Notes: generated by a model from the sequence alone, not told the origin. DNA of 64,000 nt from an uncultured bacterium (GCA_965371855.1 CBDUZZ010000005.1:28342-92341), one strand, 5' to 3'. Counted from the stretch's first letter, positions 9,349 to 31,890 are shown. Translations and numbers: made by a program.

Positions 9349-9357
9349 TTACATCCA

Positions 9358-10698
9358 TTAATCCTTTATCCAATATTCATCCATAAACTCTTGCTTAATA
9401 CCCACTTCTGCTTTGGTAAAATACTCCATAAACAGTTTCCATGAAATATCCAACATCATCTCTGTGTCTACATTCACATCTATAGCAAGTAGTTTGTCTG
9501 AATACTCTTTTGCAAAGTTCATTGTTCTCTCATCATAATCGGTAAGGTCGAAACCATTTTCCATCTTTGTCCTTGCATTTGCAGCATCAGCATACAATCT
9601 GATTGCAGCATTCATAACCTGAGGATGGTCAGTACGGGTTTGTTTACCAATAACCAACTGCTTAAGACGTGATAAACTACGGAATGGGTCAATAATTACT
9701 TTACCTATATCGGTGTCACGACGCAGGAACAACTGCCCTTCGGTGATATATCCTGTATTATCAGGAATAGCATGTGTAATATCACCTCCCGAAAGTGTAG
9801 TTACTGCAATAATAGTGATAGAACCACCGGCAGGAAATTGTACAGCTTTCTCATAAATACGAGCTAAATCGGAATATAGCGAACCCGGCATACTATCTTT
9901 CGAAGGTATTTGGTCCATCCTGTTTGACACAATACTTAATGCATCAGCAAAAAGTGTCATATCGGTTAACAATACCAATACTTTTTCATTCTTATCAACC
10001 GCAAAATATTCAGCAGCAGTAAGAGCCATGTCAGGTACGAGCAATCGCTCCACCGGAGGATTCTCGGTTGTATTTACAAAACTGATGATACGGTCAAGTG
10101 CTCCGGCATTATCAAAAACATTCTTAAAAAAGAGATAATCATCATTAGACAATCCCATACCACCAAGAATAATTTTATCTGCTTCTGCTCTTAAAGCCAC
10201 ATTAGCCATAACCTGATTATAAGGCTGGTCAGGGTCAGCGAAGAATGGAATCTTCTGTCCTGTAACCAAAGAGTTATTCAGGTCGATACCGGCAATACCG
10301 GTAGCAATTAACTGTGATGGTTGTTTACGCCTTACCGGGTTTACTGATGGTGAACCGATATCCCGAATTTCACCTTCTACTTCAGGCCCCCCGTCAATAG
10401 GTTCACCGTAAGCATTGAAGAAACGCCCTGCCAACTGATCACTAACCTTTAGTCGTGGCGGATGCCCCATAAAGATAACTTCAGCATTTGTGGGTATTCC
10501 CTCGGTACCGGAAAACACCTGCAATGTAACATTCTCACCAATAATCTTCACCACCTGCCCCAGTCGCCCATGTATCATGGCTATCTCATCATAGCCAATC
10601 CCCTGTGCTTTTAATTGAACAGTAGCTTTAGTGATATTGGTGATTTTTGCATATACTTTTTGAAACGCTTGTTTTTCCATGAATTTATATTTTTCCAA
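9358..10698 (-). CDS. ntpB: V-type ATPase subunit B
   Basis: 446 aa, with regulatory (non-catalytic) AB-family sequence such as SMPGSLYSDLARIYE and ITIIAVTTLSGGDITH. Confidence 0.93.
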   Translation of the reverse strand: MEKYKFMEKQAFQKVYAKITNITKATVQLKAQGIGYDEIAMIHGRLGQVVKIIGENVTLQVFSGTEGIPTNAEVIFMGHPPRLKVSDQLAGRFFNAYGEPIDGGPEVEGEIRDIGSPSVNPVRRKQPSQLIATGIAGIDLNNSLVTGQKIPFFADPDQPYNQVMANVALRAEADKIILGGMGLSNDDYLFFKNVFDNAGALDRIISFVNTTENPPVERLLVPDMALTAAEYFAVDKNEKVLVLLTDMTLFADALSIVSNRMDQIPSKDSMPGSLYSDLARIYEKAVQFPAGGSITIIAVTTLSGGDITHAIPDNTGYITEGQLFLRRDTDIGKVIIDPFRSLSRLKQLVIGKQTRTDHPQVMNAAIRLYADAANARTKMENGFDLTDYDERTMNFAKEYSDKLLAIDVNVDTEMMLDISWKLFMEYFTKAEVGIKQEFMDEYWIKD

Positions 10699-10707
10699 AA
10701 ACGATTC

Positions 10708-12477: not shown

Positions 12478-13339
12478 GGCTTAATATAAATTCTTCAGGA
12501 AATTCGTAACTATTTTCCATATCAGTTATTAATTGTTTAAATAATTTCCTACCTATTTCTTCATCAAGGCTAATCCAGCGCTCCACAATAAAAACTTTAA
12601 CTACAAAGGCCAGCACTTTCTCAATAGAAAAATAATTAAAAAAAGTGGATTCATCTAAAAACTGCCAACGCATCATGTCAAGTTTTATTTCCCTGTCTAA
12701 AAGATTAGGTATTTCATGTAATTGTATAATTGATTCCAGATTATCAATATCATTAGTAAGTCCAAAATCCCTTGCCCTGCTTTTTTTAAGGGCGTGTTCA
12801 ATGTCTCCCTCACCAATAATATCAGCAGATATATCCATGTCGAACTTCCGTCCGTTAAGAGCAGTAAGTACATTTCTCAGGTTTAATTCATGCCGGGTAT
12901 AATCACTCAGAAATTGATTGCCGAATTGTTGGAGATACTCATAATAATCGTTAGTAAGCTTTCGTTGGGCGTTCACTTTTAAAGCCTTCTCCTCAGCTTC
13001 AAAAAAGCCATCCAGAAAATCAACTATATAAACCGGCATGCTAATGTTTTCAGCTAGTTCAAATGTCTTTTTATCTGTAACCTCTTCTATCTCTTCAGCG
13101 GTAAAAATTCCATGATTATCATATACCGGCTCCTTATCATAGAGCCTGCTTAAAATATTAAGATGATCAAATGGTAGAAAGAATAAGTTCACAAGTTTAA
13201 AATCCTGCGGATGTATATCTTCCAGCAACAACTCCCTGAATGCGATGGAAGAGAACGCCAATTTACGTTCTTCCATAATCAAATCAGGTAACCCTGCAAC
13301 GAGACAATAATAGTTTCTAACCATCTTATTTATTCTCAA
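12461..13339 (-). CDS. DUF2764-family protein (occupies the subunit C position in Bacteroidota V-ATPase operons)
   Basis: 292 aa starting ...YYCLVAGLPDL..., located between E and A as in other Bacteroidota V-ATPase operons (from memory). Confidence 0.7.
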   Translation of the reverse strand: MRINKMVRNYYCLVAGLPDLIMEERKLAFSSIAFRELLLEDIHPQDFKLVNLFFLPFDHLNILSRLYDKEPVYDNHGIFTAEEIEEVTDKKTFELAENISMPVYIVDFLDGFFEAEEKALKVNAQRKLTNDYYEYLQQFGNQFLSDYTRHELNLRNVLTALNGRKFDMDISADIIGEGDIEHALKKSRARDFGLTNDIDNLESIIQLHEIPNLLDREIKLDMMRWQFLDESTFFNYFSIEKVLAFVVKVFIVERWISLDEEIGRKLFKQLITDMENSYEFPEEFILSHGTKK

Positions 13340-13937
13340 ATAACAATTCTACTGATTTAGGGCGCAGGTAGGCTTTGAAAAAATTATTAAAATCTTCTTC
13401 AGTAAAACTGATAATGTAACTATTGTCTTTAGGACCAACCCTAAATCCACCAACAAGACTCTTGTCAAATTTAACCTCAACACCATTATTAATTTCTGCA
13501 GCAAGACTATTTTTAAAAAACGTTTCAAGCTCTTTTTGATCCTTAGCAGGAAGAACAACGCCAAGGTCAAAATCACCGGTTTTTGTCCAACCCGTAACAA
13601 CAGTGAGAATAATACTTTGCAAATACTTTTTATCACCAAAAACCTCTTTCATTGTAGGTTCTACAACATTTAATGTAATAAGACCTGACACTTGTTGTTT
13701 CAAAGCACTTAAAGCCTGTGATGATGCCAGCTTCATTTCTGCCTGCATGTTTCTGTTAAACTCTTCGGCTTTTTTTTCTGCATTCTTAATTTTGTTATCT
13801 GCTTCAGTGTTAGCATTGGCTATTATCTCTTCAGCCTCTTTTTTAGCCGTTACCAATATGGCCCCGGCTTCTTCGTTGGCCTTCTGAATGCCCTCATTAT
13901 AAATCTTATCAGTTAATTCCTGAAGTTTAGTATGCAT
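13326..13937 (-). CDS. ntpE: V-type ATPase subunit E
   Basis: 203-aa protein with a long charged N-terminal helix (KKEAEEIIANANTEADNKIKNAEKKAEEF). It is the first gene of the operon. Confidence 0.8.
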   Translation of the reverse strand: MHTKLQELTDKIYNEGIQKANEEAGAILVTAKKEAEEIIANANTEADNKIKNAEKKAEEFNRNMQAEMKLASSQALSALKQQVSGLITLNVVEPTMKEVFGDKKYLQSIILTVVTGWTKTGDFDLGVVLPAKDQKELETFFKNSLAAEINNGVEVKFDKSLVGGFRVGPKDNSYIISFTEEDFNNFFKAYLRPKSVELLFENK

Positions 13938-16672: not shown

Positions 16673-19600
16673 TTATTCTATAGGAAGAGTAAAATAAAAC
16701 TTAGTCCCCTTTCCTTTTTCCGATTCAACCCATATCTCGCCATTAAGTGCTTCAACTAAATTTTTGGTAATTGCTAACCCCAAACCATTTCCCCGATACA
16801 GGTTTTTATCCACATTTTCAAGCTTATAAAAACGATTAAATATCTTTTTTATCACCTTATCATCAATTCCGATACCCGTATCTTTCACAAAGAAAAGCAA
16901 TTTGTTTTTCTCTTTTATATAGCCAAACTCAACAAAACCTTTGCCAGTAAATTTTATAGCATTTCCTATCAGATTATTCAATATTTGCAGTAAACGCTGA
17001 GAATCTGTTTTAACAACAGAATCGGAATTATTATCAATATTTATAACTAACTTAACCTGCTTCTTCTCTGCAAGCTGAGTTGAACTTTCAAATAATATAA
17101 AGACATTATTAATAAGATTATAAATATCAACATCAGATAAACTAAGCTTCAGTTGTCCTGATTCGATCATAGATATATCAATAATATCATTCAAAAGATT
17201 AAGTAATGCATCACTATTTGTTCTAACCATTCTGGCAAATGATAGTCGTTCTGACTCATCGAAACCGGGAGTAGACAGAAGTTCGGAGAACCCCAAAATT
17301 GCATTCATCGGAGTTCTGATCTCATGCGACATATTCGAAAGAAAAGCAGATTTTAATTTATCTGATTCTTCAGCTTTTTGTTTTGCCAGTTCAAGTTCAG
17401 ATGTTCTTTTCTTAACTTCTTCTTCCAAACCAGCTGCAAAATGCTCCAGTTTATCTTTTTGTCGGGCAATCTCGTCGCTTTTTAATTGAATCTCATGTGT
17501 ACGGCTTTTTACAATATCCTCAAGTTTTTTCTTCTCTTTGCTAAGACGATAAGTTCTGTATTTAAAAACAAATATTACTATAAATAACAACAACAATATC
17601 TCAACGAATATCACCCATTTTTTCTTCCAAAATGGTGGTTTAACAACTATTGTAATAGACTTAACATTATCACACAAAACCCCATCTCCATTGGTAGATT
17701 TTACTTCCAGATTATAGTCTCCCGGGCTAAGGTCAACAAATGTAACAAAGTTATGTTCTCCTAACGACACCCATTCAGGTGATACAGGTAACATACGATA
17801 ATAATATTTTATTCGTTCAGCATTGGAATAATCCAAAGCCGCAAATCTGAGAGAGAACATTTTTTCCTTAGGATAGAATGAAATTTTAGATGCTGAAATA
17901 ATATTCTTTTTAAAGTTAATTTTATCAGACAAAATAGTATCACTCATCGTAATTTCTTCACCAAAAACCGACAATCCGGTAAAATATATTGGCGGAATAA
18001 ATCCGGATTTATGAATACTGTCAGGATAAAATCCTGTAACTCCATTAATACCTCCGAATAAAAAATATCCGTCATTAAGTTTTATAGCTGCAGGATTAAA
18101 CTCATTGCTCTGAAGCCCATCCTCTTCATAATAAACATCTTTAACCTTATACGTATTTTTATCAATTACTGCCAATCCCCTATTTGTTGACACCCATACA
18201 GTAGTTTCTGACTCAAGCATTCTATACACAAAAGGATTAGGCATTCCGTCCTTCACCCCAATATTCTTGATAATTACTCCTTTTTCAGAATCAAAAATTG
18301 AAATTCCTTTACTTGTTGCCAGCCAAAACTCATCATCCTTAGTTTCAAACATAAAAAAGATATCATTTGAAAGAATTTCAGTCCCCTCATCAAATCTATA
18401 CACTTTAAAATCATCAGATTCCGTATTATAAAGATTTAATCCGTCAGCCGTACAAAACCATAATCGTCCTTTTCTATCATTATATATTTGCTCTACATTC
18501 GAATTGCTAATGCTATTGGGAGTTCCATCGGCAAAATAATTAACAAATGTATTTGTTCGTGTATTAAAACGGCTTACACCATTGCTTGTTGCAATCCAAA
18601 CATTACTGTTTTGATCCTTTGCAATGTAATAAATATCATCATTTACAAGACTACCCGGATCTCCATCCTTATTGTAGTAGTGTTGCTGGGATCTGCTATT
18701 TACATTATATCTGACAACTCCGACTGATGTTGCAATCCATAAATCATTGTTTTCATCTAATGACAAATTCCAGATAGCATTATCATAACTATATTCACCA
18801 AATATTTTTAAACCAATTGTTTCAAATGTATTATCTTTTCTATTCCATAACGACAACCCATTTTCTGTTCCTATCCAAACTCTACCTTTATCATCTTCAG
18901 AAAAATCAAAAATCGAATTATCAGGGATACTCGGCTGGTTAGCCACATGATATAAGTTCGTAAAAGGTTTTCTTTTTGTATTAATCCTGACAGCACCATT
19001 ACTTATAGTACCAATCCAAACATTTTCCAAATTGTCACAATAAGAAACAAACAAGCTATTATCAGTAAATGATTGTTGATCAAAATCATTATGCTTAAAT
19101 TCTGTTATCTTCCCCTTTTTATCAATACGAATCAAACCATTGGAAACAGTCGTTATCCAATAATTTTTATTTTTATCCTTAATTACATCTCTCAAATTTT
19201 TACCTAACAGGTTAAAAAGTTCATAGTTCCCAACCTCAGGATCAAAAACAAAAAGACCGGCTTTTGTTGCTAATAGCATAAAACCATCTTCATACTCAAC
19301 AATAGATCTAATATAATTCCTGCTAATAAGATTTTCACTTGAAACATTATTCTGATAAAATTTATAACTGCCATCAACCTGACTAAGCTTAAGCAATCCC
19401 CTGCCATTTGTTCCCACCCATAGATTGATATCATTATCCACAAATAATGAAAGAGCATTTAATCTTGACATAATATCCGTAGAATCATGTTTAAAAGGGT
19501 AATTGTGGAAAGTTTCCTTTTCAGGATTAAATCTTGAAACACCTTTATCTGTAGCTATCCAAACTGTTGTATCATTAACATACAATATAGCATTAAGATA

Positions 19601-19996
19601 ATTATCGATGATAGAAAGCGAATCATTCTTTTCATAATATTTAAACTTATTATTACTCAAATTTAAAACATTAAGTCCTCCTCCGTATGTAGCAATAAAC
19701 ATCTTATCATGCTTATCTCCGTCTAACCCCGTGATTGTTCCATGAGAAATTGATTTAATACTATCATCCTTAACATAAGGCAGGAAAGCCTTTATTGATC
19801 GGCCATCGAAACGATTAAGTCCGTCAAACGTACCAAACCAGATAAAACCTTTGCCATCCTGATATATTGAAAGAACAGTTGATTGGGTCAATCCATCTTT
19901 AATGCTAATACTTTTAAAGTCATACTCTGAAATCTGTGTATAACCTATATGCCCCATCAACATCAACAATACTACCAACAACTTGAAATTCATCAA
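16673..19996 (-). CDS. Sensor histidine kinase with periplasmic two-component-regulator propeller repeats and a Y_Y_Y domain (no receiver or DNA-binding domain)
   Basis: 1107 aa: signal peptide, repeated ...W(I/V)(G/A)T..G(L/V).R(F/Y)... propeller units, one TM segment, coiled coil, H-box [18 protein letters not shown] and G-box [24 protein letters not shown]. Confidence 0.85.
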   Translation of the reverse strand: MMNFKLLVVLLMLMGHIGYTQISEYDFKSISIKDGLTQSTVLSIYQDGKGFIWFGTFDGLNRFDGRSIKAFLPYVKDDSIKSISHGTITGLDGDKHDKMFIATYGGGLNVLNLSNNKFKYYEKNDSLSIIDNYLNAILYVNDTTVWIATDKGVSRFNPEKETFHNYPFKHDSTDIMSRLNALSLFVDNDINLWVGTNGRGLLKLSQVDGSYKFYQNNVSSENLISRNYIRSIVEYEDGFMLLATKAGLFVFDPEVGNYELFNLLGKNLRDVIKDKNKNYWITTVSNGLIRIDKKGKITEFKHNDFDQQSFTDNSLFVSYCDNLENVWIGTISNGAVRINTKRKPFTNLYHVANQPSIPDNSIFDFSEDDKGRVWIGTENGLSLWNRKDNTFETIGLKIFGEYSYDNAIWNLSLDENNDLWIATSVGVVRYNVNSRSQQHYYNKDGDPGSLVNDDIYYIAKDQNSNVWIATSNGVSRFNTRTNTFVNYFADGTPNSISNSNVEQIYNDRKGRLWFCTADGLNLYNTESDDFKVYRFDEGTEILSNDIFFMFETKDDEFWLATSKGISIFDSEKGVIIKNIGVKDGMPNPFVYRMLESETTVWVSTNRGLAVIDKNTYKVKDVYYEEDGLQSNEFNPAAIKLNDGYFLFGGINGVTGFYPDSIHKSGFIPPIYFTGLSVFGEEITMSDTILSDKINFKKNIISASKISFYPKEKMFSLRFAALDYSNAERIKYYYRMLPVSPEWVSLGEHNFVTFVDLSPGDYNLEVKSTNGDGVLCDNVKSITIVVKPPFWKKKWVIFVEILLLLFIVIFVFKYRTYRLSKEKKKLEDIVKSRTHEIQLKSDEIARQKDKLEHFAAGLEEEVKKRTSELELAKQKAEESDKLKSAFLSNMSHEIRTPMNAILGFSELLSTPGFDESERLSFARMVRTNSDALLNLLNDIIDISMIESGQLKLSLSDVDIYNLINNVFILFESSTQLAEKKQVKLVINIDNNSDSVVKTDSQRLLQILNNLIGNAIKFTGKGFVEFGYIKEKNKLLFFVKDTGIGIDDKVIKKIFNRFYKLENVDKNLYRGNGLGLAITKNLVEALNGEIWVESEKGKGTKFYFTLPIE

Positions 19997-20119: not shown

Positions 20120-23100
20120 CTATTGTTTCGGTATAGTAAAATAAAATGTAGTTCCTTCTCCTTCTTCTGTATCAAACCAAATCTCTCCTTTCAGGGCTTC
20201 AACCAGGCTTTTAGTAATTGCTAATCCCAAACCATTACCACCATATATGTTTATTTCATCTTTTCCAAGCTTATAAAACCTTTCAAATATCTTATCTTTA
20301 TATTCATCAGAAATTCCAATACCTGTATCTTTCACAAAAAATATAATCTTATATTCCTCTTCTTCACACCCTAACTGAACACTTCCTTTATCAGTAAATT
20401 TCAATGAGTTACTTAAAAGATTAGTTATTACCTGTCTCAACCTATTAATGTCAGTATTAATAATTATTGATGAATTTACGTTAACTGACAATAGTAAGCT
20501 AACAGCCTTTTTTTCACCTAATAACTTTGAATTATTAAAAGTTAAAAAAATATCATTTATAAGTTCACAAACATGAACATCGGCAAAATTCAATTTCAGT
20601 TGACCTGATTCAATCATCGATATATCAATAATATCATTTAACAGGCTAAGTAAAGCATCACCATTCGATTTGACCATCCTTGCAAAATTTTCCCGTTCCT
20701 GTTCATCAAATCCTGTAGTCAATAGTAGTTCCGAAAACCCTAATATGGCATTCATGGGTGTTCTGATTTCATGTGACATATTTGACAGGAATGCCGATTT
20801 TAACCTGTCTGATTCTTCAGCTTTCAGTTTGGCATATTCCAACTCTTTTGTTCGTTCTCTTACTTTATACTCAAGCCCTGCTGCAAAATCTTGCAGCTTT
20901 TCTTTTTGACGTACAATTTCATCCCGTTGCTTATTTGCAATGTTTCGCTGCGTCTGTATCTCCCTGGTACGAACATTAACAATATTCTCAAGTTTCTTTT
21001 TATCTTTTCTTAACCTTAAAATACGTAATCTGAAAATTAACAACACCAATAAGACCAAAATGAATATACCGGAAGATATTATCCACCATTTTCTCCAAAA
21101 AGGAGGGGAAATAACCAGTTCAAGAGACCTTACATTGTCGCACATAATGCCGTCTCCATTTGTTGATTTTATTTCAAGAATATATTCTCCGGGATTAAGA
21201 TTTATAAAAGTAATAAAGTTTCGTTTACCTATTGATATCCACTCCTCAGACACGGGAAGGATTCTGTAAAAATATGAAACGCGTTTAGGATATATATAAT
21301 CAAGAGCAGAAAATTTCAGTGTAACCATCTTCTCATCCGGCGTAAAGGTTATTCTTGAGGCTGAAATAATATTTTTATTAAAATTTGCCCTTTCCCAAAC
21401 TAAAGGATTTTCAGGAGATACTTCTTTCCCAAACAAAGAGATATCGGTTAAATAGACAGGCGGACAATAATCAGACTTGTGAATATGATCAGGGTTAAAC
21501 ATTGCAACTCCCTTTATCCCTCCAAATAAAAAATAACCATCACTTAGTTTCACTACAGCACCGCTATTAAATTCATTACTTAACAGTCCATCATCAGCAG
21601 AATATCTTGTTTTTATGGTATAATTGTCCTTATCAACAACCACAATCCCGTTATTAGTAGATGCCCAAAATGAATCATCTGTTTCTAATATATAATAAGC
21701 TAACTCTTCTGAGATTTCATCACCTGCCTTTACATATCCTTTAATATTTTTATTTTCAGGATCGTATATAAAAACGCCACTCTCGGTTGTAACCCAAATC
21801 TCCCCCTTTTCAGATTCAGTGACTGATATTGTGCTATTAGACAACATATTTCCAGAATTAAAACTACTACTACTAAACCTTATTACACTAAAGTCATCAG
21901 TTTCATAGTTATACAAATCTAACCCATCCTCAGTACAAAACCATAACCTGCCCTTACTATCACATAGGATATCCCACACTTTATTATGGCTGATAGAATT
22001 TTCAGTTGAATCACCCACATAATAATTTACAAATGAGTTTGTCTTTTTATTTAGCCGACTAATACCATTGAGTGTTGACATCCATAAATTATCATTCTTA
22101 TCTTTTTCTATACTAACTACATCATTATATATCAGACTTGAAGGTTTATTTGGATCATTATAATAATGCGTTTGCCTACCGTTTTTTCTGTTATATTTTA
22201 TCAAACCCAAATTAGTACCAATCCATACAACATCATTATTATCAAAATATAGTGACCAAACAGAAACATCATAAACTAATCTTTTATTATATAATCTTAA
22301 TCCAACCGGTTTAAAGCTATTTTTCTTTCTATTCCAAATTGCCAAACCTTTAGTTGTTCCTATCCAAACATCTCCATTTTCATCTTCTGCAAGTGCAAAA
22401 ACAGAATTATCGGCAATACTTGGCTTATTAGGTACGTGATAAAGATTAACAAATGGTTTTCTTTCAAGATTAATTTGAACCACTCCTTTTGTCCTTGTAC
22501 CAATCCAGATATTCTGAATATTATCTTTATATGCTCCCAATAGCTGAGAATCAGGAAATGATAATAAATCATACGGATTATTATTAAACCGTTCTAATTT
22601 TTCATTTTTATCAATATGATACAAACCATTAAACCTCGAAGTAATCCAATAACCTCCAAATTGATCTTTTGCAATTTGAAACAGTTCAATTTCATTAATC
22701 AGATACTTAAAAAAACCTCCTGTTTGAGGATCAAAAAGAAACAAACCATTTTTTGTAGCAACAAGAAATAACCCGTCTTTAAATTCAACAATACTTTTAA
22801 TAAAGTTCTTTTTAACAATATCTCCTCCTTGGGTTTTATTCACAAAAGGAATAAATCGTTCCTCCTCAGGAATATATTTTAATAATCCTCTACCTTGCGT
22901 TCCTATCCATAATCCTCTGTTTTCATCATAAAACAAAGAAAAAGCTCCGTTCCCTGATACTCCATGTGTTTTTTTTTCAGGAAGTATATAGTTACGGAAT
23001 GTACCTGTCAATGGATTTAATCTGGACACTCCTCTATCCGATGCTATCCATACAGTCTTTTCATCAATACATAATACAGAATTCAAATATTTACACATTA

Positions 23101-23524
23101 ACGAATTCTCAATGGAATCTGAATGATAATAATTTATAACATTATCATTATTTATGTTATATACATTTAAGCCCACCCCATAATTTGCAATGTAAAGATT
23201 TCCTCCAGCTCCTTCGTCCAATCCCCTTATAGATCCTTTTATAGTCTTTTGCTCCTTTCCATCCTGAAATGATAATAGTGATAAATTTCTGCCATCATAA
23301 CGACTGATACCATCATTAGTACCAAACCAAATAAATCCTTTACTGTCTTGAAATATTGAAAAAACAGTTGATTGAGACAGACCTTCTTCAAGAGAGATTG
23401 TTCTAAATTCATATTTAGATATCTGAGAATACATACCGGTACTCCAAAGCAACAACAATACTACTCCAATTATATAGTTATTCCTCGTTAAAAGATTATA
23501 TTTCAACCCAAATATTTTTCTCAC
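20120..23524 (-). CDS. Paralogous propeller/Y_Y_Y sensor histidine kinase
   Basis: 1134 aa, collinear with the neighbouring kinase over its whole length, with the same H-box [18 protein letters not shown] and G-box [24 protein letters not shown]. Confidence 0.85.
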
Positions 23525-23621
23525 AATCTATTCAATTACCATTTTAATGCTATTAAGTTAACGAATTTAATGCAATATATGTTTCTAAAACAGATAAAAA
23601 CATTTTTCAATCATAGTTATG

Positions 23622-23629
23622 TAAATTTG
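23622..23629 (+). promoter_or_regulatory. Possible -7 promoter box TAAATTTG upstream of GH92
   Basis: Matches TAnnTTTG, 64 nt upstream of ATG 23693. No clear -33 element. Confidence 0.3.
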
Positions 23630-23692
23630 GAGATTCGATTAAAAAAATATATTTTATCTTTATTCCCTCTATTAATAGCAAAAATAAATAAT

Positions 23693-25993
23693 ATGCTTAA
23701 ACTTACTTATTCAATATTTGTGTTGTCATTATGTTGTTTGATGCTATCATGCCAACCCGGTAAAACAGAAACTTCATCTTCTGAAGATCTTACCACTTAT
23801 GTTAATACCTTAATGGGTACTGACTCAAAATTCTCTTTATCAAACGGCAACACTTATCCTGCTATAGCGGTTCCCTGGGGAATGAACTTCTGGACACCGC
23901 AAACAAACAAAATGGGTGATGGCTGGGGTTATATGTATGATGCAAATAAAATCAGAGGGATAAAACAGACTCACCAACCAAGTCCGTGGATAAATGACTA
24001 TGGTGCATTTAGTTTAATGGCTGTCACCGGAAAGCTCAAATTCAACGAGAATGAACGAGCTTCATGGTTTTCACACAAATCAGAAACGGCAAGCCCATTT
24101 TATTACAAAGTATATCTCGCTGATTATGATGTAACAGCCGAAATTACTCCTACAGATAGAACTTCTCATTTCAGGTTTACTTTCCCTGAAACAGATTCAG
24201 CATATATTTTAATAGATGCTTTTTACCAGGGATCAATGGTAAAAATATTACCTGAAGAGAGAAAAGTTATTGGATATTGCAGGAATAATTCCGGGGGTGT
24301 TCCACGAAATTTCCATAACTATTTTGTTGCTGTCTTTGATAAAGATTTTGATGCAGTAAGTACATGGAACGGAGATAAACTGAATAAAAATTCAGAAATC
24401 GAGGAAGGATTTCATGTTGGTGCGGTTCTTCGTTTTAAAACTAACAAAAAGGAACAGGTTCATGTTAAAGTAGCCTCTTCATTTATCAGTCCGGAACAAG
24501 CAGAATTAAACCTCAAACGTGAACTAAGTAAAAATTCATTCAACGACACAAAACAAAAGGCTCATGATATCTGGCAAACAGAATTTAATAAAATAAAAGT
24601 TGAAGGCGGAACGATAGACCAAAGAAGAATTTTTTATTCAACACTATATAGGCTTTTACTATTTCCAAGGAAATTTTATGAGTATAATGCTGATAACAAA
24701 GTTATACACTACAGCCCATATAACGGAAAAGTCCTACCCGGCTACATGTTTACTGATAATGGTTTTTGGGATACTTTCAGAGCAGTATTTCCGTTTTTCA
24801 CACTAATGTATCCTGAGTTAGATTCTCAAATAATGCAAGGACTTGTAAACACATACAAAGAGAGTGGGTGGTTACCCGAATGGGCTAGTCCGGGACACAG
24901 AGGCTGTATGATAGGTTCAAATTCTGCTTCTCTCATTGCAGACGCATACATTAAAGGAATAAGAGGATATGATATAGAAACCCTATACGAAGCTGTACTT
25001 AAAAATACAAAAGGGCATTTGAAAGACATAACATCAGTAGGCAGATATGGTGCTGAATATTACAATAAACTGGGATATATTCCTTATGATGTGGAAATAA
25101 ATGAAAATGCTGCACGTACATTAGAATATGCTTACAACGATTTCTGTATTATGCAACTGGCAAAAAAGCTTAATCGTCCACAGGAAGAGATTGACCTATT
25201 TGCCAATAGGGCTATGAATTACAAAAACCTTTTCGATGCTGAAACAAAACTTATGAGAGGAAAAAATATTGACGGCACTTTCCAGTCTCCATTCAATCCG
25301 TTCAAATGGGGTGATGCTTTTACCGAAGGCAATAGTTGGCACTACACCTGGTCAGTATTTCATGACATAAACGGTTTAGTAAATCTTATGGGAGGTGAAA
25401 AAGAGTTTATTGAAATGATGGACTCAGTTTTCTCCATGCCTCCTCTGTTTGATTGCTCATATTACGGTTTTCCCATTCACGAAATTCACGAAATGCAAAT
25501 AATGAATATGGGTCAATATGCTCACGGTAACCAACCGATTCAACATTTTACATACTTATATAATTATGCCGGTGAACCATGGAAAACCCAATATTGGGTC
25601 AGACAAATTATGAACAAGCTATACACTCCTACACCCGATGGATATTGCGGTGATGAAGATAACGGACAAACTTCGGCATGGTATGTATTTAGTGCTTTAG
25701 GATTTTATCCTGTTTGCCCGGGGCAGCCAATGTACGTGTTCGGTAGTCCGGTTTTCGATAAGGCAATCCTGCAACTCCCAAACGACAAAAAACTTGAGAT
25801 AATAAGCAATAACAATACCGATAAAGCTTTTTATGTAAAAAATATAACATTGAACTCTTCAGACTACAATAAAAATTTCATTTCACACGACAATCTGCTT
25901 AAGGGTGGAGAGCTGATATTTGAAATGGATAGTACTCCTAATAAATCAAGAGGGGTTAAACCTGAATCATTCCCTCCATCTATGAGCAATTGA
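23693..25993 (+). CDS. Glycoside hydrolase family 92 (alpha-mannosidase)
   Basis: GH92-like sequence throughout (YVNTLMGTDS..., GYCGDEDNGQTSAWYVFSALGFYPV). Start set at ATG 23693 (MLKLTYSIFVLSLCCLMLSCQ, a lipoprotein signal) rather than track start 23570. Confidence 0.88.
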   Translation: MLKLTYSIFVLSLCCLMLSCQPGKTETSSSEDLTTYVNTLMGTDSKFSLSNGNTYPAIAVPWGMNFWTPQTNKMGDGWGYMYDANKIRGIKQTHQPSPWINDYGAFSLMAVTGKLKFNENERASWFSHKSETASPFYYKVYLADYDVTAEITPTDRTSHFRFTFPETDSAYILIDAFYQGSMVKILPEERKVIGYCRNNSGGVPRNFHNYFVAVFDKDFDAVSTWNGDKLNKNSEIEEGFHVGAVLRFKTNKKEQVHVKVASSFISPEQAELNLKRELSKNSFNDTKQKAHDIWQTEFNKIKVEGGTIDQRRIFYSTLYRLLLFPRKFYEYNADNKVIHYSPYNGKVLPGYMFTDNGFWDTFRAVFPFFTLMYPELDSQIMQGLVNTYKESGWLPEWASPGHRGCMIGSNSASLIADAYIKGIRGYDIETLYEAVLKNTKGHLKDITSVGRYGAEYYNKLGYIPYDVEINENAARTLEYAYNDFCIMQLAKKLNRPQEEIDLFANRAMNYKNLFDAETKLMRGKNIDGTFQSPFNPFKWGDAFTEGNSWHYTWSVFHDINGLVNLMGGEKEFIEMMDSVFSMPPLFDCSYYGFPIHEIHEMQIMNMGQYAHGNQPIQHFTYLYNYAGEPWKTQYWVRQIMNKLYTPTPDGYCGDEDNGQTSAWYVFSALGFYPVCPGQPMYVFGSPVFDKAILQLPNDKKLEIISNNNTDKAFYVKNITLNSSDYNKNFISHDNLLKGGELIFEMDSTPNKSRGVKPESFPPSMSN

Positions 25994-26282
25994 AAAACAA
26001 TATATATTGAACCGGGAATACAATATTATTAATTTGACATAATAAAATATCTGTTTCTCGAACATATAAACAGGCATGCTTTTTGCTTGAAAGAATTATC
26101 TTTGTCACAAGTTAACATTTTAAATGTGCTTGCACATAAACAATGCAACAATGCAATTTCAAAACTCACTCAATAATCCCTTAAATGTGATATTCCTACA
26201 AACACAACATATTATTTTCCCCTTAATGGGAATAAAAAGAGTACAAATAAAAAAATATTTAATTTTCTCACTGACAGTAAGT

Positions 26283-28724
26283 ATGTTTGCCCATATTAAG
26301 GAAAACACATATAGAAACTCTCTGTTTTTAATCATCATAATGCTTTTATTGACGGCTAATAATTCACTGTCTCAAACACTCATATTAAAAGATGAAATTA
26401 CTCATGAGCCTATTTTCATGGCTAACATTTACTCTAAAGATCAAAAATTATCAACAGCTTCCGATGTAAAAGGGAAAGCTGACATAACAACATTCTCACA
26501 ATGCGATAGTATTTATATCAAATACATAGGCTATTCACTGGAAATTTATAGTTTTGAACAATTAAAGAAGAAAAATTTTACAGTTTATTTAAAACAAAAC
26601 TCCATTTCATTAGATGAGATGGTTGTATCAGCAACCAGATGGAAACAGAAGAAAACTGACGTTCCAAACAAAATAACCACCGTTCGCGCCCGCGATATCA
26701 TCATTCAAAATCCGCAAACAACAGCCGACCTCCTGGCACAAACCGGAGATGTATATATTCAAAAAAGTCAATTAGGAGGCGGAAGTCCCATGATTCGTGG
26801 CTTTGCTACAAACAGAGTGCTTATCTCTGTTGATGGCATACGTATGAACAATGCAATTTTCAGAAGCGGAAATATTCAAAATGTCATCTCTCTTGATGCT
26901 TTTGCAATAGACCAGACAGAAGTAATTTTCGGCCCGGGCTCTATTATTTATGGCAGTGATGCCATAGGTGGTGTAATGAGCTTTTACACTTTAAACCCTG
27001 GATTCTCATCAAATAACGATGCATGGTTCAATGTACATGCAACAGCTCGTTATGCTTCGGCAAACAACGAAAAAACCGGCCATTTCGATTTTAAAACAGG
27101 ACTAAGAAAATGGGCTTTTACTACTAGTGTTACATTTTCTGATTATGATGATTTGAAGATGGGTAAATACGGTACTGATGATTATCTGCGTGAAGAATAT
27201 GTAATACGCAAAAACAATAGAGATGAGATTATCCCTAATTCAGATTTCAGACAACAAGTATCTTCCGGTTTCCAACAAATAAACCTGATGCAAAAAATCA
27301 GATTTCAGGCAGGTAGAACATGGACTTTAAACTATGACTTTCACTACTCAACAACAGGTAATTATCCCCGCTACGACAGATTAATAAGATATAAAAACAG
27401 CCACCTGCGATCTGCTGAATGGTATTATGGCCCTCAAAAATGGATGATGAACCACCTGTATGCTCATAACAAGAAAAAGACTACTTTTTATGATCAAATG
27501 GTCATCCATCTGGCACAACAACATTTTCAGGAAAGTCGCCATGACAGGGACTTTAACAATAACACAAGACATAACAGAACAGAAACGGTAAATGCTTTCA
27601 ATCTGAATTTAGATTTTGAAAAGACATTTAATGAAAAACATCATCTGACATACGGAACTGAATTTATTTTTAATAAAGTTGGCTCCGTTGCAAACGATCA
27701 AAACATAAATACATTTTATCAATCTCCTGCAGCAACACGATATCCTGACGGTTCAACATGGAGCTCAATGGCTGTTTTTGCTGATTACCGATATAAATTA
27801 ACGGAAAAGACTGACATAAAAATAGGCTCACGCTATAACCACATTATTCTGAATGCAGATTTTGACACACAATTTTACCCATTCCCGTTCGACAATTCAC
27901 ACATTAACACAGGTGCTGTAACCGGAAGTTTTGGATTAGTCTACAATCCGGATGAAACAATGCAGTTGATGGCAAATCTCTCTACCGGATTCAGAGCTCC
28001 CAATATTGATGATGCAGGCAAAGTATTTGATTCTGAACCCGGTTCTGTTGTTGTTCCAAATCCAAACCTTAACTCAGAATACTCATTAAATAGTGAAATT
28101 GGCATAACTAAAGTTTTTACCGGAAAGTTAAAATTAGATTTCTCAGCCTATTACACCAATCTTTTTGATGCCATGGTACGCCTTGACTATACACTAAACG
28201 GACAAGACAGCATTGTTTATGATGGAGAAATGAGTAAAGTACAGGCAATTCAAAATGCAGCAAAAGCTTATGTCTATGGCATTCAGGCCGGAATAGAGTG
28301 GAAATTACCATTAAACCTTACATTCTCATCAAGGTTTAACATTATGAAAGGAGAAGAAGATCTTGACAACGGTGAAAAAGCTCCTTTACGACATGCTACA
28401 CCATGTTTTGGTATTACACATATAATATACTCCCACAATCATATTAAACTGGATATATATGCAACTTATAATGGACAAGTATCATACGAAAACATGCCTC
28501 CTTCAGAAGTTTCAAAAGATTATATGTATGCCAAAGATTCAAATGGAAACCCGTTCTCCCCAAAATGGTATACAGTAAATATAAAAAGTTTGTATCGCTT
28601 AAATGATAACCTGATATTAACTGCCGGAGTTGAAAACATTACCAATCAAAGATATAAAAATTATGCATCAGGAATAGCTGCTGCCGGTATTAATTTTATT
28701 ATTGCTGTAAAAGTTTCTTTCTGA
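26283..28724 (+). CDS. TonB-dependent receptor (not SusC type; no SusD partner)
   Basis: Plug motifs DEMVVSATR..., GGGSPMIRGF, VDGIRMNN and GPGSIIYGSDAIGGV, plus a C-terminal beta-barrel ending in F. Start set at ATG 26283 (MFAHIKENTYRNSLFLIIIMLLLTANNSLSQ), since the track start 26124 adds an unlikely leader. Confidence 0.85.
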   Translation: MFAHIKENTYRNSLFLIIIMLLLTANNSLSQTLILKDEITHEPIFMANIYSKDQKLSTASDVKGKADITTFSQCDSIYIKYIGYSLEIYSFEQLKKKNFTVYLKQNSISLDEMVVSATRWKQKKTDVPNKITTVRARDIIIQNPQTTADLLAQTGDVYIQKSQLGGGSPMIRGFATNRVLISVDGIRMNNAIFRSGNIQNVISLDAFAIDQTEVIFGPGSIIYGSDAIGGVMSFYTLNPGFSSNNDAWFNVHATARYASANNEKTGHFDFKTGLRKWAFTTSVTFSDYDDLKMGKYGTDDYLREEYVIRKNNRDEIIPNSDFRQQVSSGFQQINLMQKIRFQAGRTWTLNYDFHYSTTGNYPRYDRLIRYKNSHLRSAEWYYGPQKWMMNHLYAHNKKKTTFYDQMVIHLAQQHFQESRHDRDFNNNTRHNRTETVNAFNLNLDFEKTFNEKHHLTYGTEFIFNKVGSVANDQNINTFYQSPAATRYPDGSTWSSMAVFADYRYKLTEKTDIKIGSRYNHIILNADFDTQFYPFPFDNSHINTGAVTGSFGLVYNPDETMQLMANLSTGFRAPNIDDAGKVFDSEPGSVVVPNPNLNSEYSLNSEIGITKVFTGKLKLDFSAYYTNLFDAMVRLDYTLNGQDSIVYDGEMSKVQAIQNAAKAYVYGIQAGIEWKLPLNLTFSSRFNIMKGEEDLDNGEKAPLRHATPCFGITHIIYSHNHIKLDIYATYNGQVSYENMPPSEVSKDYMYAKDSNGNPFSPKWYTVNIKSLYRLNDNLILTAGVENITNQRYKNYASGIAAAGINFIIAVKVSF

Positions 28725-28744
28725 TAAACGATCTCACAATCAGG

Positions 28745-28823
28745 ATAAAATAAAGAAATGGGAACAACTGATGTTGCTCCCATTTCTTATTAACCTAACC
28801 CAAATCTATGAAAAAAAATTCAA
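28745..28823 (-). ncRNA. Candidate sigma-54-dependent small RNA, copy 1
   Basis: Starts about 12 nt downstream of the -12 element and runs UUGAAU-U8-CAUAGAUUUGGGUUAGGUUAAUA. A 15-bp hairpin follows (28754-28768 paired with 28773-28787), then UUAUUUUAU. Confidence 0.55.
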
Positions 28824-28833
28824 TTAGTAACAT

Positions 28834-28849
28834 TACAACTACTGTGCCA
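28834..28849 (-). promoter_or_regulatory. Sigma-54 (-24/-12) type promoter, copy 1 (TGGCAC-N5-TTGTA)
   Basis: The minus strand reads TTGGCACagtagTTGTA. The -24 element is perfect. The -12 element has GT instead of the consensus GC. Confidence 0.5.
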
Positions 28850-28949
28850 AAAATAACGCCCTAATGTTATTGTATGTTAATTGTTATTCAAATTTCCTAA
28901 ATAGTAGCTTGCCAGCACTAAATAACAATACGCTTACTTTTTTCATTGT

Positions 28950-29026
28950 AAAAAAAGAGATGGGAACAATCCATTGAATGTTCCCATCTCATATTAACCT
29001 AACCCAAATCTATGAAAAAAATTCAA
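28950..29026 (-). ncRNA. Candidate sigma-54-dependent small RNA, copy 2
   Basis: UUGAAU-U7-CAUAGAUUUGGGUUAGGUUAAUA, then hairpin GAGAUGGGAACA/UGUUCCCAUCUC (28957-28968 paired with 28979-28990), then U7. This is a textbook intrinsic terminator. Confidence 0.65.
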
Positions 29027-29036
29027 TTTAATGTAT

Positions 29037-29052
29037 TGCAACTACTGTGCCA
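29037..29052 (-). promoter_or_regulatory. Sigma-54 (-24/-12) promoter, copy 2 (TGGCAC-N5-TTGCA)
   Basis: The minus strand reads TTGGCACagtagTTGCA, an exact match to the RpoN consensus TGGCAC-N5-TTGC. Confidence 0.7.
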
Positions 29053-29130
29053 AACATTCCAACACTTTGTTATTAAGAGTTAAATGAATTAAAATACTGT
29101 GAAATCCCATATTCTGCTTCCCTACATACT

Positions 29131-29204: not shown

Positions 29205-30128
29205 TTAAAAGAAGTACTTTCCTGCGTCAGTTTTTATACTACACTTCAAAGCATAGTACAGTTTGTATAAATTAAACAACATCAAATCAGGGTATATCTT
29301 TAATAAAAAGAATTTCAACAGTGGTAAAAACAATCTTAAAATAGCAAATACTATCTTATGCAGATGCATTTTATATAACCTTTGAACAAATACCAGAAGT
29401 TTGACATCCAAAATAAAATCAACATTGCCATTAACAATGTCAAGTACTTTAAACAAACTTTTTACAGCCTCACGGCTTTTATACAAAAACTCTTCATTTG
29501 TATCAAGGTCTTCATTAACTACACCATTATCTATATGAATAATTTTAACCTTCGCTTTTTTCAAATCATAACCCATTAAAGTATCCTCATGACCATATCC
29601 GGTGATAGATTCATGAAAAGATATTTGTTGCAATATATCTTTAGGAATAATAACATTCTTTGTAATAAATGATTTATAAGAGTTCTTGCTCCTGATTTTT
29701 GAAGGTTTGCTTTCAACCTTACGGCCATACTTCCATCTTAATATTTTATCCTGCTGAGGTCTGTTTTTCGAATAAACACTCCCCCCAATAATTACATGTT
29801 TTTCATTAGATTTCAACGTTTTTATATACAAACCTAAAAAACCGGAATTATCTATTATGGAATCTGAATCAATAAAAAGTAAATTAGGTTTTTCCGCGTA
29901 CTGTAAAAACAGATTCCTTATACGGGCTCTTCCAATATTTTCATCAAGTTCAATGTATTGATCGATATACTTTCCTAATTTCCTGTTTTTCTCTTTATAA
30001 TATATATCAGATGCATCATCGATAACAATAATCTCTACTATATATTTTAGTTTAGCTTTCTGAAAATACAGAGCCTTAATCAACCGCTCTATATCACTGT
30101 TAAAAACGGGAATACATACACTAAGCAT
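29205..30128 (-). CDS. Glycosyltransferase family 2
   Basis: MLSVCIPVFNS...VIDDASD...FIDSDS are GT2 (GT-A fold) signatures. 307 aa. Confidence 0.85.
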   Translation of the reverse strand: MLSVCIPVFNSDIERLIKALYFQKAKLKYIVEIIVIDDASDIYYKEKNRKLGKYIDQYIELDENIGRARIRNLFLQYAEKPNLLFIDSDSIIDNSGFLGLYIKTLKSNEKHVIIGGSVYSKNRPQQDKILRWKYGRKVESKPSKIRSKNSYKSFITKNVIIPKDILQQISFHESITGYGHEDTLMGYDLKKAKVKIIHIDNGVVNEDLDTNEEFLYKSREAVKSLFKVLDIVNGNVDFILDVKLLVFVQRLYKMHLHKIVFAILRLFLPLLKFFLLKIYPDLMLFNLYKLYYALKCSIKTDAGKYFF

Positions 30129-30248: not shown

Positions 30249-30698
30249 ATGACATCTTTTATAATAGCTCTTGCTACACTCATTCTTGGTTATTTTTTTT
30301 ACGGCCGTGTAGTTGAACGCTTCTTTGGCGCTGATGACTCAAAGCCAACACCGGCAATGAAAATGCAAGATGGCGTTGACTACACACCTATGCCTACATG
30401 GAAAGTATTTACTATTCAATTTCTTAACATTGCAGGTCTGGGGCCAATTTTCGAAACCATTCTCGGGGCCATGTATCTGGCTAAAGTAAAAAAACCTCTC
30501 TGGATGCTTTCATTGCCGGCAGCTTTTATGACAACTGTGACGTTTACATACCTGCTTGTTGCTCCGGTGAAAAACGGCGGTTTCTTTTTAAGTACTGACA
30601 TTGGCTATTTAATTGGTCTCGCAGGTGGTATCTTTTCACTTATTCTATTCATAAATAAATCACGTAAACATTCAAAGGGAAACAGATTACATGAATAA
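30249..30698 (+). pseudogene. Carbon starvation protein CstA remnant with an in-frame internal deletion (intact 149-aa ORF)
   Basis: The N-terminus GYFFYGRVVERFFGADDSKPTPAMKMQDGVDYTPMPTWKVFTIQFLNIAGLGPIF matches the CstA N-terminus. It runs straight into a C-terminal-like segment KKPLWMLSLPAAFMTTVTFTYLLVAP. Several hundred central residues are absent. Confidence 0.6.
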
Positions 30699-31890
30699 TT
30701 TCAGACCTTTCTCAAGAAAGACAGTACTCATTTGGTTTGCTCTGCTAACCTTCGGATTAACTGAATTGGCAGCAGCTTATCCGCATATTACAGAGAAGTA
30801 TTATTCTACCGGCATTTATCCTGTTATTGCATCCATATTAAGCAGAATAAGTAATGCTTTCCCGTTTTCGTTGGATGACATTTTCTACATATCTCTAATC
30901 GTTGTAGCCATCACTCTGACAGGACTTTTAATAATTAGTGTCTGCAAGAAAACTATCAAATTTAGAGGTTTGCGTCATTGCGAACGAGGTACGAGTAAAG
31001 CAATCTCTATTGGATATCAACAGATTGCTTCGTCCTATCGTCCTCGCAATGACGATCTGTGTCATGTTTTCTTGCAGACACTAATTAGAAAGGTTCGAAT
31101 AAAAAAAATCATCTATACGCTTATAAATGTTTTAGCTGTAGTTTACATTCTCTTTTACTGGTTATGGGGTTTTAACTATTTCAGAATACAATTAAACGAA
31201 AGATTAACTATTCCTGAACAAACAGTATCGAAGGAAAATTTCAACTATGCACTTGATTATTTAATAGAATCTGCAAACAAAAATCACACTGACACATTTA
31301 ATATTAGCTACAACGACATAAACATATTGGTTGAAAAAAGTTATCAAGAGTCATCCGGTTTTTTAAAAATAAATTACCCTCAGGGAGTTCGTAATCCAAA
31401 ACCTATTACATTCAGCAGGTTTTTTGCCAAGGCTGCCATTTCCGGGTATTTCGGGCCATTTTTTAATGAGATACATATTAACCACTATCTGTTGCCTGTT
31501 GAGTATCCATGGACACTTGCACATGAAAAATCACATCAGTTTGGAATAACAAGCGAAGCAGAAGCAAATTTTTATGCATGGATTATTTGCAACAATAGTG
31601 AAAACAGTCAAATCAGATATAGTGCTAACCTAAATGCACTGTTCTACTTTTTATACGAGGCAAGAAAACTGAAAGATTATAAAAATACTATTTCTAAAAT
31701 TGACGAAGATGTAAAAGAAGACATTAGAGAAATCATTAATCACTGGGCCAAACTTCGTAATAAACATGTTGAGAAAGCTGCATCCAAAGCAAACGACACT
31801 TACCTTAAAACAAACAAAATAGAAAAAGGTATTGATGACTACAATGAAGTTGTAAAGTATGTTACTGAGTATTTGGTGATGAAGAAATGA
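30691..31890 (+). CDS. DUF3810-family putative membrane metalloprotease
   Basis: 399 aa with N-terminal TM segments and a LAHEKSHQFGITSEAEANFYAW zinc-protease-like motif. It carries a 52-codon palindromic insertion (separate feature). Confidence 0.7.
   Translation: MNNFRPFSRKTVLIWFALLTFGLTELAAAYPHITEKYYSTGIYPVIASILSRISNAFPFSLDDIFYISLIVVAITLTGLLIISVCKKTIKFRGLRHCERGTSKAISIGYQQIASSYRPRNDDLCHVFLQTLIRKVRIKKIIYTLINVLAVVYILFYWLWGFNYFRIQLNERLTIPEQTVSKENFNYALDYLIESANKNHTDTFNISYNDINILVEKSYQESSGFLKINYPQGVRNPKPITFSRFFAKAAISGYFGPFFNEIHINHYLLPVEYPWTLAHEKSHQFGITSEAEANFYAWIICNNSENSQIRYSANLNALFYFLYEARKLKDYKNTISKIDEDVKEDIREIINHWAKLRNKHVEKAASKANDTYLKTNKIEKGIDDYNEVVKYVTEYLVMKK
30932..31087. repeat. 156-bp palindromic element inserted in frame in the DUF3810 gene
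   Basis: Outer arms taattagtgtctgcaagaaaac (30932-30953) and gttttcttgcagacactaatta (31066-31087) are perfect 22-bp reverse complements. Inner arms are cgtcattgcga (30973-30983) with tcgcaatgacg (31044-31054), and aagcaatct (30998-31006) with agattgctt (31022-31030). 156 is 52 codons, and there is no stop in the gene frame. Confidence 0.8.

Follow-up and report, generated by a model that had tools for sequence, protein, structure and literature searches.

Probable tandem small RNA genes with putative sigma-54 promoters and a FopS-like seed in an uncultured bacterium

In a 64,000-nt stretch of DNA from an uncultured bacterium (GCA_965371855.1 CBDUZZ010000005.1:28342-92341; hereafter, the window), two paralogous units lie on the minus strand, flanked by a TonB-dependent receptor gene on one side and a GT2 glycosyltransferase gene on the other. 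What are these units, which form of RNA polymerase would transcribe them, and on what would their products act? An earlier note on this DNA had described them as a tandem pair of sigma-54-promoted, terminator-capped candidate small RNAs (sRNAs) of about 77 nt, some 200 bp apart. We found two units of ~75 nt, 204 bp apart, and our analysis supports, at the level of sequence, this core reading of tandem sRNA genes with putative sigma-54 promoters. It is very likely that the units are sRNA genes. That they are stand-alone, trans-acting sRNAs under sigma-54 control, similar to FopS, a 14-member “family of paralogous sRNAs” of Bacteroides thetaiotaomicron (PMC11697453), is the overall reading, which we favor with moderate confidence.

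Anatomy of the two units and their relatives

The units are counted along the minus strand, and copies 2 and 1 of the earlier note are referred to as the upstream and the downstream copy, respectively. The features of the locus are as follows.

28950–29025, minus strand: upstream sRNA candidate (copy 2), ~76 nt; covariance model R1, 95.7 bits; fold; Rfam FopS, 28.3 bits.
29021–28992, minus strand: predicted seed of the upstream sRNA, U7-CAUAGAUUUGGGUUAGGUUAAUA, followed by its terminator hairpin (28990–28957) and U7 tail (28956–28950).
29038–29052, minus strand: −24/−12 element of the upstream copy, TGGCAC-AGTAG-TTGC, which fits the sigma-54 consensus exactly (TGGCACAGTAGTTGC).
29068–29083, minus strand: conserved upstream box TTAACTCTTAATAACA, 15–30 nt upstream of the −24 element of the upstream copy.
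28746–28821, minus strand: downstream sRNA candidate (copy 1), ~75 nt; R1, 87.8 bits; terminator scan; fold; FopS, 29.4 bits.
28818–28788, minus strand: predicted seed of the downstream sRNA, U8-CAUAGAUUUGGGUUAGGUUAAUA, followed by its hairpin (28788–28753) and a U-rich tail to ~28746.
28835–28849, minus strand: −24/−12 element of the downstream copy, TGGCAC-AGTAG-TTGT, with T at the −12 C position (TGGCACAGTAGTTGT).
26124–28724, plus strand: TonB-dependent receptor gene (Pfam Plug, TonB_dep_Rec_b-barrel, CarbopepD_reg_2), convergent with the downstream sRNA.
29205–30128, minus strand: GT2 glycosyltransferase gene (Pfam Glycos_transf_2), upstream of the sRNAs and on the same strand; syntenic context only.

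The Pfam domains of the two flanking genes bear out their earlier identification. Both copies contain the segment ATTGAA-T7/8-CATAGATTTGGGTTAGGTTAATA, and a single extra T is the sole difference between them, which confirms the shared 35/36-nt segment noticed before. The 23-mer core CATAGATTTGGGTTAGGTTAATA occurs exactly twice in the window (29014–28992 and 28810–28788), while 0 occurrences are expected from shuffles, and covariance model R1 found no further copies in the 64 kb. In each unit, the U7/U8 run lies 18 or 19 nt downstream of the promoter element and is followed by CAUAGAUUUGGGUUAGGUUAAUA. From promoter geometry, the start of the upstream sRNA is predicted near 29024–29026; only 22 nt separate the end of the downstream sRNA from the stop codon of the convergent TonB receptor. 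As had been claimed, the two copies share no conserved reading frame, on either strand.

The 3′ parts of both units fold as long hairpins (12- or 16-bp core) followed by a U-tract, with energies of −24.2 and −25.2 kcal/mol (z = −3.6 and −4.9 compared to shuffles), while the 5′ 35 nt are unpaired in centroid folds. Folding and the terminator scan thus recover in both units the hairpin and U-tract that had been described. The compensatory pair between the copies, G-C (GAGATGGG/CCCATCTC) versus A-U (GAAATGGG/CCCATTTC), is also real, except that the string “cccaCctc” in the earlier note is a slip for cccatCtc. In the model-based alignment of relatives, 95.9% of terminator stem cells are paired, and both-side changes are seen in 10 of 11 pairs; the observed values were reached by 0 of 500 shuffles. 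The stem thus covaries strongly, in agreement with the proposed selection on RNA structure, and both units show a GC-containing hairpin, a U-tract, and a covarying stem, as Rho-independent terminators do. Hairpin sequences vary freely among loci; the 5′ 32 nt do not.

Relatives were collected by pattern searches. A scan of IMG/VR with a degenerate seed pattern returned 78 loci, nearly all of them Bacteroides-type FopS genes with ...TACCTTTGcaatgtgTTTTTCAT; these viral contigs yielded Bacteroides-type FopS only and no unit with the window's seed. A version of the pattern that lacked the 2-nt insertion, run against one genome per GTDB species, returned 24 loci, mostly from Marinilabiliaceae (Carboxylicivirga, Geofilum, Alkaliflexus, Alkalitalea, Natronoflexus, and Saccharicrinis), and a few from metagenome-assembled genomes (MAGs) labeled Chlorobiota, Ignavibacteria, or Bacteroidetes. 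Scanning metagenomes with the exact seed yielded five more non-redundant contigs. The window's seed is present in 16 non-redundant units (two in the window, nine from genomes, and five from metagenomes), and the complete set contains 25 non-redundant units, the window's two included, which come mostly from Marinilabiliaceae genomes, and also from two MAG contigs and five metagenome contigs. The promoter-core-terminator arrangement, whose conservation in relatives the earlier note had suggested checking, is conserved in these relatives.

Second, tandem copies that the patterns had not picked were recovered by R1 in loci L099, L103, and L108; they have the seed variant GGGUUUGG, and each has its own TGGCA(C/T)-N5-TTGC. 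R1 also revealed “class C” units (seed UUUCUCAUAGUUUAGGGUUAGGUU, promoter element TGGCA(T/C)-N5-TTG(T/A/C)) in Alkaliflexus, Alkalitalea, Natronoflexus, Geofilum, and Marinilabiliaceae MAG loci. The window holds two copies, MAG JAADEM01 at least three (L086, L099), and Carboxylicivirga linearis FB218 at least two (L084, L100); C. caseinilyticus A049 also has a unit, in L080. Other Marinilabiliaceae have a single-copy class B sRNA (GAGAGUUUUUUCAUAGGUUUAGGUUAGGUUAAUUAGGUUUAGG...) with a sigma-ABfr-type TATATTTG box; class-B upstream regions also contain a degenerate TGGCGC-N5 motif ~45 nt before CAU. Class B is followed in tandem by class C (UUUCUCAUAGUUUAGGGUUAGGUU..., TGGCAT-N5-TTG) in L081, L083, L085, L087, L089, L094, and L102 (e.g., L089:6407–6501 and 6707–6789, plus strand; L087:871–942 and 1116–1194, plus strand), so that two seed-related paralogues with different promoter types stand side by side.

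The −24/−12 element and its candidate regulators

Among the 25 units, TGGCA and TTG each have a mean pairwise identity of 97% (TGGCA, 1.9 bits per position), as compared to 33% for the 5-nt spacer, 32% for the upstream flank, and 41% for the 8 nt downstream. Conserved blocks in the midst of a drifting spacer and drifting flanks leave a footprint like that of a −24/−12 promoter; since the units are mutually related, it is this contrast that is informative, rather than a chance probability. TGGCA-N6-TTG is found in exact form in 23 of the 25 units, at a background of 4.1e-5 per nt (1.95 Mb of collected sequence). In the window, its only two intergenic sites are those of the sRNA units, and the six others are inside open reading frames (ORFs). 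In 15 of the 16 units with the window's seed, TGGCA(C/T/G)-N5-TTG(C/T) precedes the CAU of that seed by 21–24 nt. Transcription from a sigma-54 promoter is expected to start ~11–14 nt downstream of the −12 element, and a purine-rich AGA, GAA, or GGA is present 13–16 nt past −12, where initiation would be expected. The −24/−12 elements reported earlier are present in both copies; the GG and GC dinucleotides in their 10-nt register are exact in the upstream copy (TTGC), and the downstream copy has TTGT. In another member of the Bacteroidota, Flavobacterium psychrophilum, mutagenesis has validated a canonical −24/−12 motif located at mapped 5′ ends, and genes for chaperones, envelope stress, gliding, and exported proteins are abundant in the sigma-54 regulon (PMC9723704).

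The alternative that survives best accepts the units as real sRNA genes but takes TGGCA-N6-TTG for a transcription-factor operator or a site used by a different sigma factor, the RNA being made from a weak, non-canonical promoter of sigma-ABfr type. Several observations weigh against sigma-54 control or speak for such a reading. The −12 base is C in 13 of the 25 units, T in 8 (the downstream copy included), and A in 4, and this C is normally among the most conserved positions of sigma-54 promoters. In L086, the element is decayed (TGGTAA-N5-TTTA) while the RNA is intact, and neither an rpoN gene nor an enhancer-binding protein is encoded in the 64-kb window. In addition, a second conserved box is present just upstream, and TAnnTTTG overlaps the T-rich run before GG in 3 of the 25 units, including the downstream copy (28855–28848). 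On the other hand, conservation falls exactly on the GG and TTG(C) of sigma-54 promoters in their 10-nt register, and the spacing to the RNA is fixed. Across the 25 units, no TAnnTTTG is conserved at −7 or at another usable distance, whereas this sigma-ABfr −7 box is found in 69 of the 78 Bacteroides-type FopS genes used as a contrast set, and in the class-B relatives; within 60 nt upstream of the same 78 genes, TGGCA-N6-TTG is found in 0. A scan for sigma-70-type promoters revealed no enrichment. Sigma-ABfr and sigma-70-type promoters, being neither conserved nor enriched, were therefore rejected, and we consider the alternative unlikely. Dependence of the units on sigma-54 is, to judge by the pattern of conservation, the probable state of affairs.

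A match to the sigma-ABfr −7 consensus TAnnTTTG, TAGATTTG, is also present inside the seed (28801–28808 and 29005–29012, minus strand). It is probably a coincidence; a start there would yield the hairpin alone.

A sigma-54 promoter would need an ATP-dependent enhancer-binding activator. An activator of C. linearis with GAF-Sigma54_activat-HTH_8 architecture (L100:2050–3606, plus strand) is encoded 1.4 kb from the L100 sRNA, and its orthologues, 68–80% identical, are found throughout Marinilabiliales; a sigma-54 system is thus present in that order. The protein is a NifA orthologue. In two of the three genomes examined (Labilibaculum and Marinilabilia, the third being Saccharicrinis), its orthologue stands beside nif genes, and no sRNA was found within 10 kb of it in any of the three. 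As a cognate activator of the sRNA units, this NifA-type protein was therefore rejected. In Labilibaculum antarcticum and Marinilabilia rubra (L109, L111), the NifA orthologue adjoins nifH, two P-II genes, and nifDK-type genes, and sigma-54-controlled nitrogen fixation appears to be widespread in Marinilabiliales.

The conserved box TTAACTCTTAATAACA upstream of the upstream copy may be bound by a regulator or a DNA-bending protein. It is near-invariant, as AACTCTTA[A/G]TAACA, in the window, L099, L103, and L108, with unalignable DNA around it, and has no other convincing copy in the window; looser TTAAC...TAAC(A) versions are seen ahead of many other sRNA copies. A perfect palindrome, TTTGGCA-TGGCG-TGCCAAA, is present in L108 (2009–2027, minus strand), ~85 nt upstream of the promoter of the downstream copy, a position that is typical for enhancer-binding-protein sites. 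Half-sites of the palindrome are found at L099:5535–5546 (minus strand) and L103:1763–1773 (plus strand), while the window has only GTGCTGGCAAGC at 28918–28907.

Stand-alone arrangement of the units

The order GT2, sRNA, sRNA, convergent TonB receptor is the same in L099 and L103 as in the window, while in L108 the sRNA pair faces a convergent, unannotated 600-aa ORF. The flanking proteins of the window and L099 are 69% (TonB receptor) and 62% (GT2) identical. Across the orthologous loci, the upstream copies do not differ in their 5′ 32 nt, and the hairpins match position by position; the upstream copies are therefore mutually orthologous across genomes, the downstream copies likewise, and the tandem duplication is old. 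In a four-way alignment of the intergenic regions (window, L099, L103, and L108), only the upstream box AACTCTTAATAACA, TTTGGCA, TTG, the seed, and the hairpins form conserved blocks.

Each copy is placed tail-to-tail with an unrelated gene, coding for PriA, a TonB receptor, ferrochelatase, an M28 peptidase, UvrB, a DJ-1/PfpI protein, or a histidine kinase. The hairpin lies 0–22 nt from the convergent stop codon or overlaps it, by 0–2 nt in most loci and by 23 nt in L088. This pattern was observed in L080, L082, L084, L086, L088, L096, L097, L100, L104, and L107, and at 28724–28790 of the window. Such placement leaves no downstream gene for an sRNA unit to regulate in cis. The terminators of the units are probably bidirectional and shared with the convergent genes, and that of the downstream sRNA is probably shared in this way with the abutting 3′ end of the TonB receptor gene, which is context for the sRNA pair and not a demonstrated target. 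The conserved module consists of the promoter and the seed, and the hairpin appears to be locus-specific. The sRNA family may spread by docking onto pre-existing bidirectional terminators.

The same arrangement could be read as a sign of cis action on the convergent gene, each unit being a bidirectional terminator combined with an antisense promoter that would cause transcriptional interference or 3′-end effects, with the 5′ segment incidental. Every copy does abut a convergent 3′ end, and the hairpins, flanked by A-rich and U-rich stretches, are bidirectional terminators. However, the convergent genes are functionally unrelated, and the overlap is minimal in most loci. Moreover, the most conserved part of the units is the 5′ seed, which is outside the neighboring gene and resembles a proven trans-acting seed, while the hairpins are free to vary. 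We thus see only a small chance that the units work in cis.

Smaller still is the chance that the units are a non-functional or DNA-level repeat, such as a mobile miniature repeat or a recombination site, conserved through recent spread. The units are multicopy and dispersed, and FopS-like sequences are found in proviral contigs, one of them directly after a tRNA-Met gene. Conservation is block-wise, however, at 97–100% in the promoter blocks and the seed, with the spacer and the stretch from −12 to the start randomized; the copies are orthologous in syntenic loci despite 62–69% protein identity; no terminal repeats are present, and no unit with the window's seed was found in the viral contigs. 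In proviral contigs L015 (5202–5312, minus strand), L002, L003, and L063, a FopS-like seed comes right after tRNA-Met or a tRNA-3′-end-like sequence (the latter not called by ARAGORN), which hints at a link of these seeds to integration sites.

A small protein encoded on the opposite strand, read from an ATG complementary to the CAU of the seed (MKK...) through −12/−24 (MKKIQFNVLQLLCQTFQHFVIKS in the upstream copy of the window, ...LQxLCQ... in several units with 23-nt spacing, C/T variation in both promoter blocks being synonymous in that frame), was rejected as practically without likelihood for its inconsistent lengths and frames: the ORFs have 3–54 codons, 11 of 26 stop within 8 codons, and units with 21-, 22-, and 24-nt spacing use other frames yet retain TGGCA and TTG.

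Relation to FopS and possible mode of action

At Rfam gathering thresholds, two tRNAs were the sole matches in the window and 20 related loci. In a permissive scan, both units were the two best matches to RF04319 BTncRNA_FopS, over the full model (1–71 of 71), with 29.4 bits for the downstream and 28.3 bits for the upstream copy (E ~0.02–0.07); the gathering threshold is 56, and this score was reached by neither copy nor by any of the 20 related loci. A weaker match was to BTnc231. The Rfam check that the earlier note had proposed thus leaves the units outside any family at gathering score, but the sub-threshold resemblance to FopS means that the RNA body is not wholly new. In the alignment with FopS, UUUUUCAU, AGGUUAAUAA, and the terminator are in common, and ~25 of 33 aligned 5′ positions are shared (manual count). 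In the reverse direction, R1 scores Bacteroides-type FopS at 18–38 bits. The architecture is likewise that of FopS: an unpaired 5′ seed (R1′) with UUUUUCAU...AGGUUAAU precedes a single terminator hairpin, in ~75 nt versus the 65–70 nt of the family. Judged by sequence, the RNA body is related to the FopS/GibS seed family, though distantly and below threshold.

FopS RNAs use their 5′ seed to pair beside the start codon of susC-like mRNAs, whose translation is thereby blocked; FopS is antagonized by the RRM protein RbpB and is transcribed from canonical sigma-ABfr promoters (TTTG at −33, TAnnTTTG at −7) (PMC11697453). Its relative, GibS, uses a non-canonical “PM2” promoter (PMC7366714). With these RNAs the units share a length of 65–77 nt, a U-rich unstructured 5′ seed UUUUUCAU...AGGUUAAUAA, a single terminator hairpin, dispersed multicopy intergenic genes, and a seed antisense to AUG and a Lys-rich start. 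Unlike FopS, their seed is 2 nt shorter and changed at ~8 of 33 positions, and their score is about half of the gathering score; the hosts are of Marinilabiliales type rather than Bacteroidaceae. FopS has 12–15 paralogues per genome in Bacteroides, and the 64-kb window contains two units. The units have a −24/−12 element where FopS has a sigma-ABfr and GibS a PM2 promoter. No RRM-type (RNP1) motif was found in the 64-kb window. What is new relative to FopS and GibS is the conserved sigma-54-type promoter, the tandem organization, and the Marinilabiliales host range. The remark in the earlier note that no equivalent is known to have been described for Bacteroidota therefore holds for the promoter and the taxon, while multicopy sRNAs of the FopS seed type were already known.

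In the mechanism that we propose, each sRNA gene would be transcribed by RNA polymerase containing sigma-54 (RpoN) from TGGCAC-N5-TTG(C/T), and the transcripts would end at the intrinsic terminator that also closes the convergent neighbor. The functional part would be the unstructured 5′ end, U7-8-CAUAGAUUUGGGUUAGGUUAAUA. The seed is the reverse complement of UAUUAACCUAACCCAAAUCU-AUG-AAA-AAA, i.e., of an A-rich leader and the Met-Lys-Lys start of a typical signal peptide. It would most likely pair over the start codon and its surroundings in mRNAs that encode secreted or outer-membrane proteins, e.g., TonB-dependent/SusC-like transporters. By analogy with FopS and GibS, such pairing would block translation initiation. 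The pair belongs to a dispersed multicopy family of Marinilabiliales type, in which a putative sigma-54 promoter takes the place of the housekeeping promoter of FopS. That the units act at start codons in the way of FopS is an analogy to which we give slightly better than even chances.

Other results tell against this analogy. RNAduplex predictions on 476 candidate start regions (the window and ~250 kb of related loci) showed no enrichment compared to shuffled seeds. The FopS score is well below the Rfam threshold, so the shared seed could be convergent. Perfect seed identity among the homologues retrieved by pattern is in part a matter of ascertainment, as the search pattern forces it; the seeds of copies found with the covariance model do vary (GGGUUUGG, and UUUCUCAUAGUUUAGGGUUAGGUU in class C).

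When the whole window was scanned for ungapped complementarity, the best non-self match scored 34.5, inside the range of shuffled seeds (29.5–36.5), and the targets are presumably located elsewhere in the genome. The only strong target sites were the starts of a 727–728-aa Pfam-less protein in L091 (4133–6319, minus strand) and L093 (start 2666, plus strand), from MAGs labeled Ignavibacteria and Bacteroidetes. The start of this protein, UUAAUUAACCUAAACAAAAUCU-AUG-AAAAAAA, is a near-perfect complement of the seed (−32 kcal/mol) and looks like a natural “target-type” leader; since both loci were fetched by the search pattern itself, the match is circular. A site at ruvA, upstream of sprA in L082 (−22 kcal/mol), was rejected as a target, being inside the shuffle range.

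Several other groups of sRNAs invite comparison. Qrr1-5 of Vibrio, which depend on LuxO and sigma-54, are also near-identical paralogues with a common seed, each with its own sigma-54 promoter and terminator. The analogy is a functional one: the Qrr RNAs share no sequence or structure similarity with the window's units, no LuxO-like activator is linked here, and the Rfam Qrr model gave no match in the region, either at gathering score or with E<=10. The Qrr RNAs fold into four stem-loops and require Hfq. In enterobacteria, the envelope-governing sigma-E drives MicA, RybB, and MicL, which shut down outer-membrane protein synthesis; here the functional analogy is a possible one, drawn by inference between RNAs that have different sigma factors and no homology. 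In a full-text literature search, the only sigma-54-promoted non-coding RNAs found for Bacteroidota were Rfp1, Rfp36, and Rfp45 of F. psychrophilum, whose transcription is listed as driven by sigma-54 (PMC9723704). They have the same promoter type (e.g., TTGGCATTACTTTTGCA for Rfp36) but are 85–348 nt long, two of them antisense, uncharacterized, and none shown to be multicopy; their sequences are unrelated to the units, and they were rejected as relatives. The same search found no sigma-54-dependent FopS-like sRNA, and no FopS outside Bacteroidaceae.

Elsewhere in the window, two tandem paralogous sensor kinases of ~1,100 aa (16673–19996 and 20120–23524, minus strand; Reg_prop repeats, Y_Y_Y, HisKA, HATPase) adjoin a divergent GH92 alpha-mannosidase gene (23570–25993) and the TonB receptor gene. 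They have no receiver or AraC output domain, and the window contains no response regulator for the pair. A 149-aa ORF (30249–30698, plus strand), which matches only the first 134 of 560 positions of carbon-starvation protein CstA and overlaps the start of a DUF3810 gene (30691–31890), may be a gene remnant. A V-type ATPase operon (6322–13937, minus strand; A, B, and I subunits, DUF2764) is an ordinary chromosomal cluster.

RNA regulation in Bacteroidota is poorly mapped, and its best-understood trans-acting example, FopS/GibS, is tied to Bacteroidaceae and to sigma-ABfr and PM2 promoters. The loci described here would extend FopS-like seeds to marine and alkaline-habitat Marinilabiliales, and would tie them to sigma-54, whose regulon in Bacteroidota is almost undefined. 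Sigma-54 promoters are silent without an activator; a −24/−12 element before a translational repressor of a known type would thus make a clean, testable switch, and the loci would be a natural example of promoter swapping in one sRNA family. More tentatively, and with the odds rather against it, sigma-54 in Bacteroidota may command a post-transcriptional arm, made of activator-gated multicopy sRNAs that are related to FopS and directed at AUG-AAA-AAA starts. If so, its activation would lower the envelope protein load or re-program nutrient-uptake transporters, as a counterpart of sigma-E with MicA and RybB. The FopS lineage of gut Bacteroides would then have exchanged −24/−12 for a housekeeping promoter, and sigma-ABfr and sigma-54 copies in tandem would place one seed family under two independent inputs.

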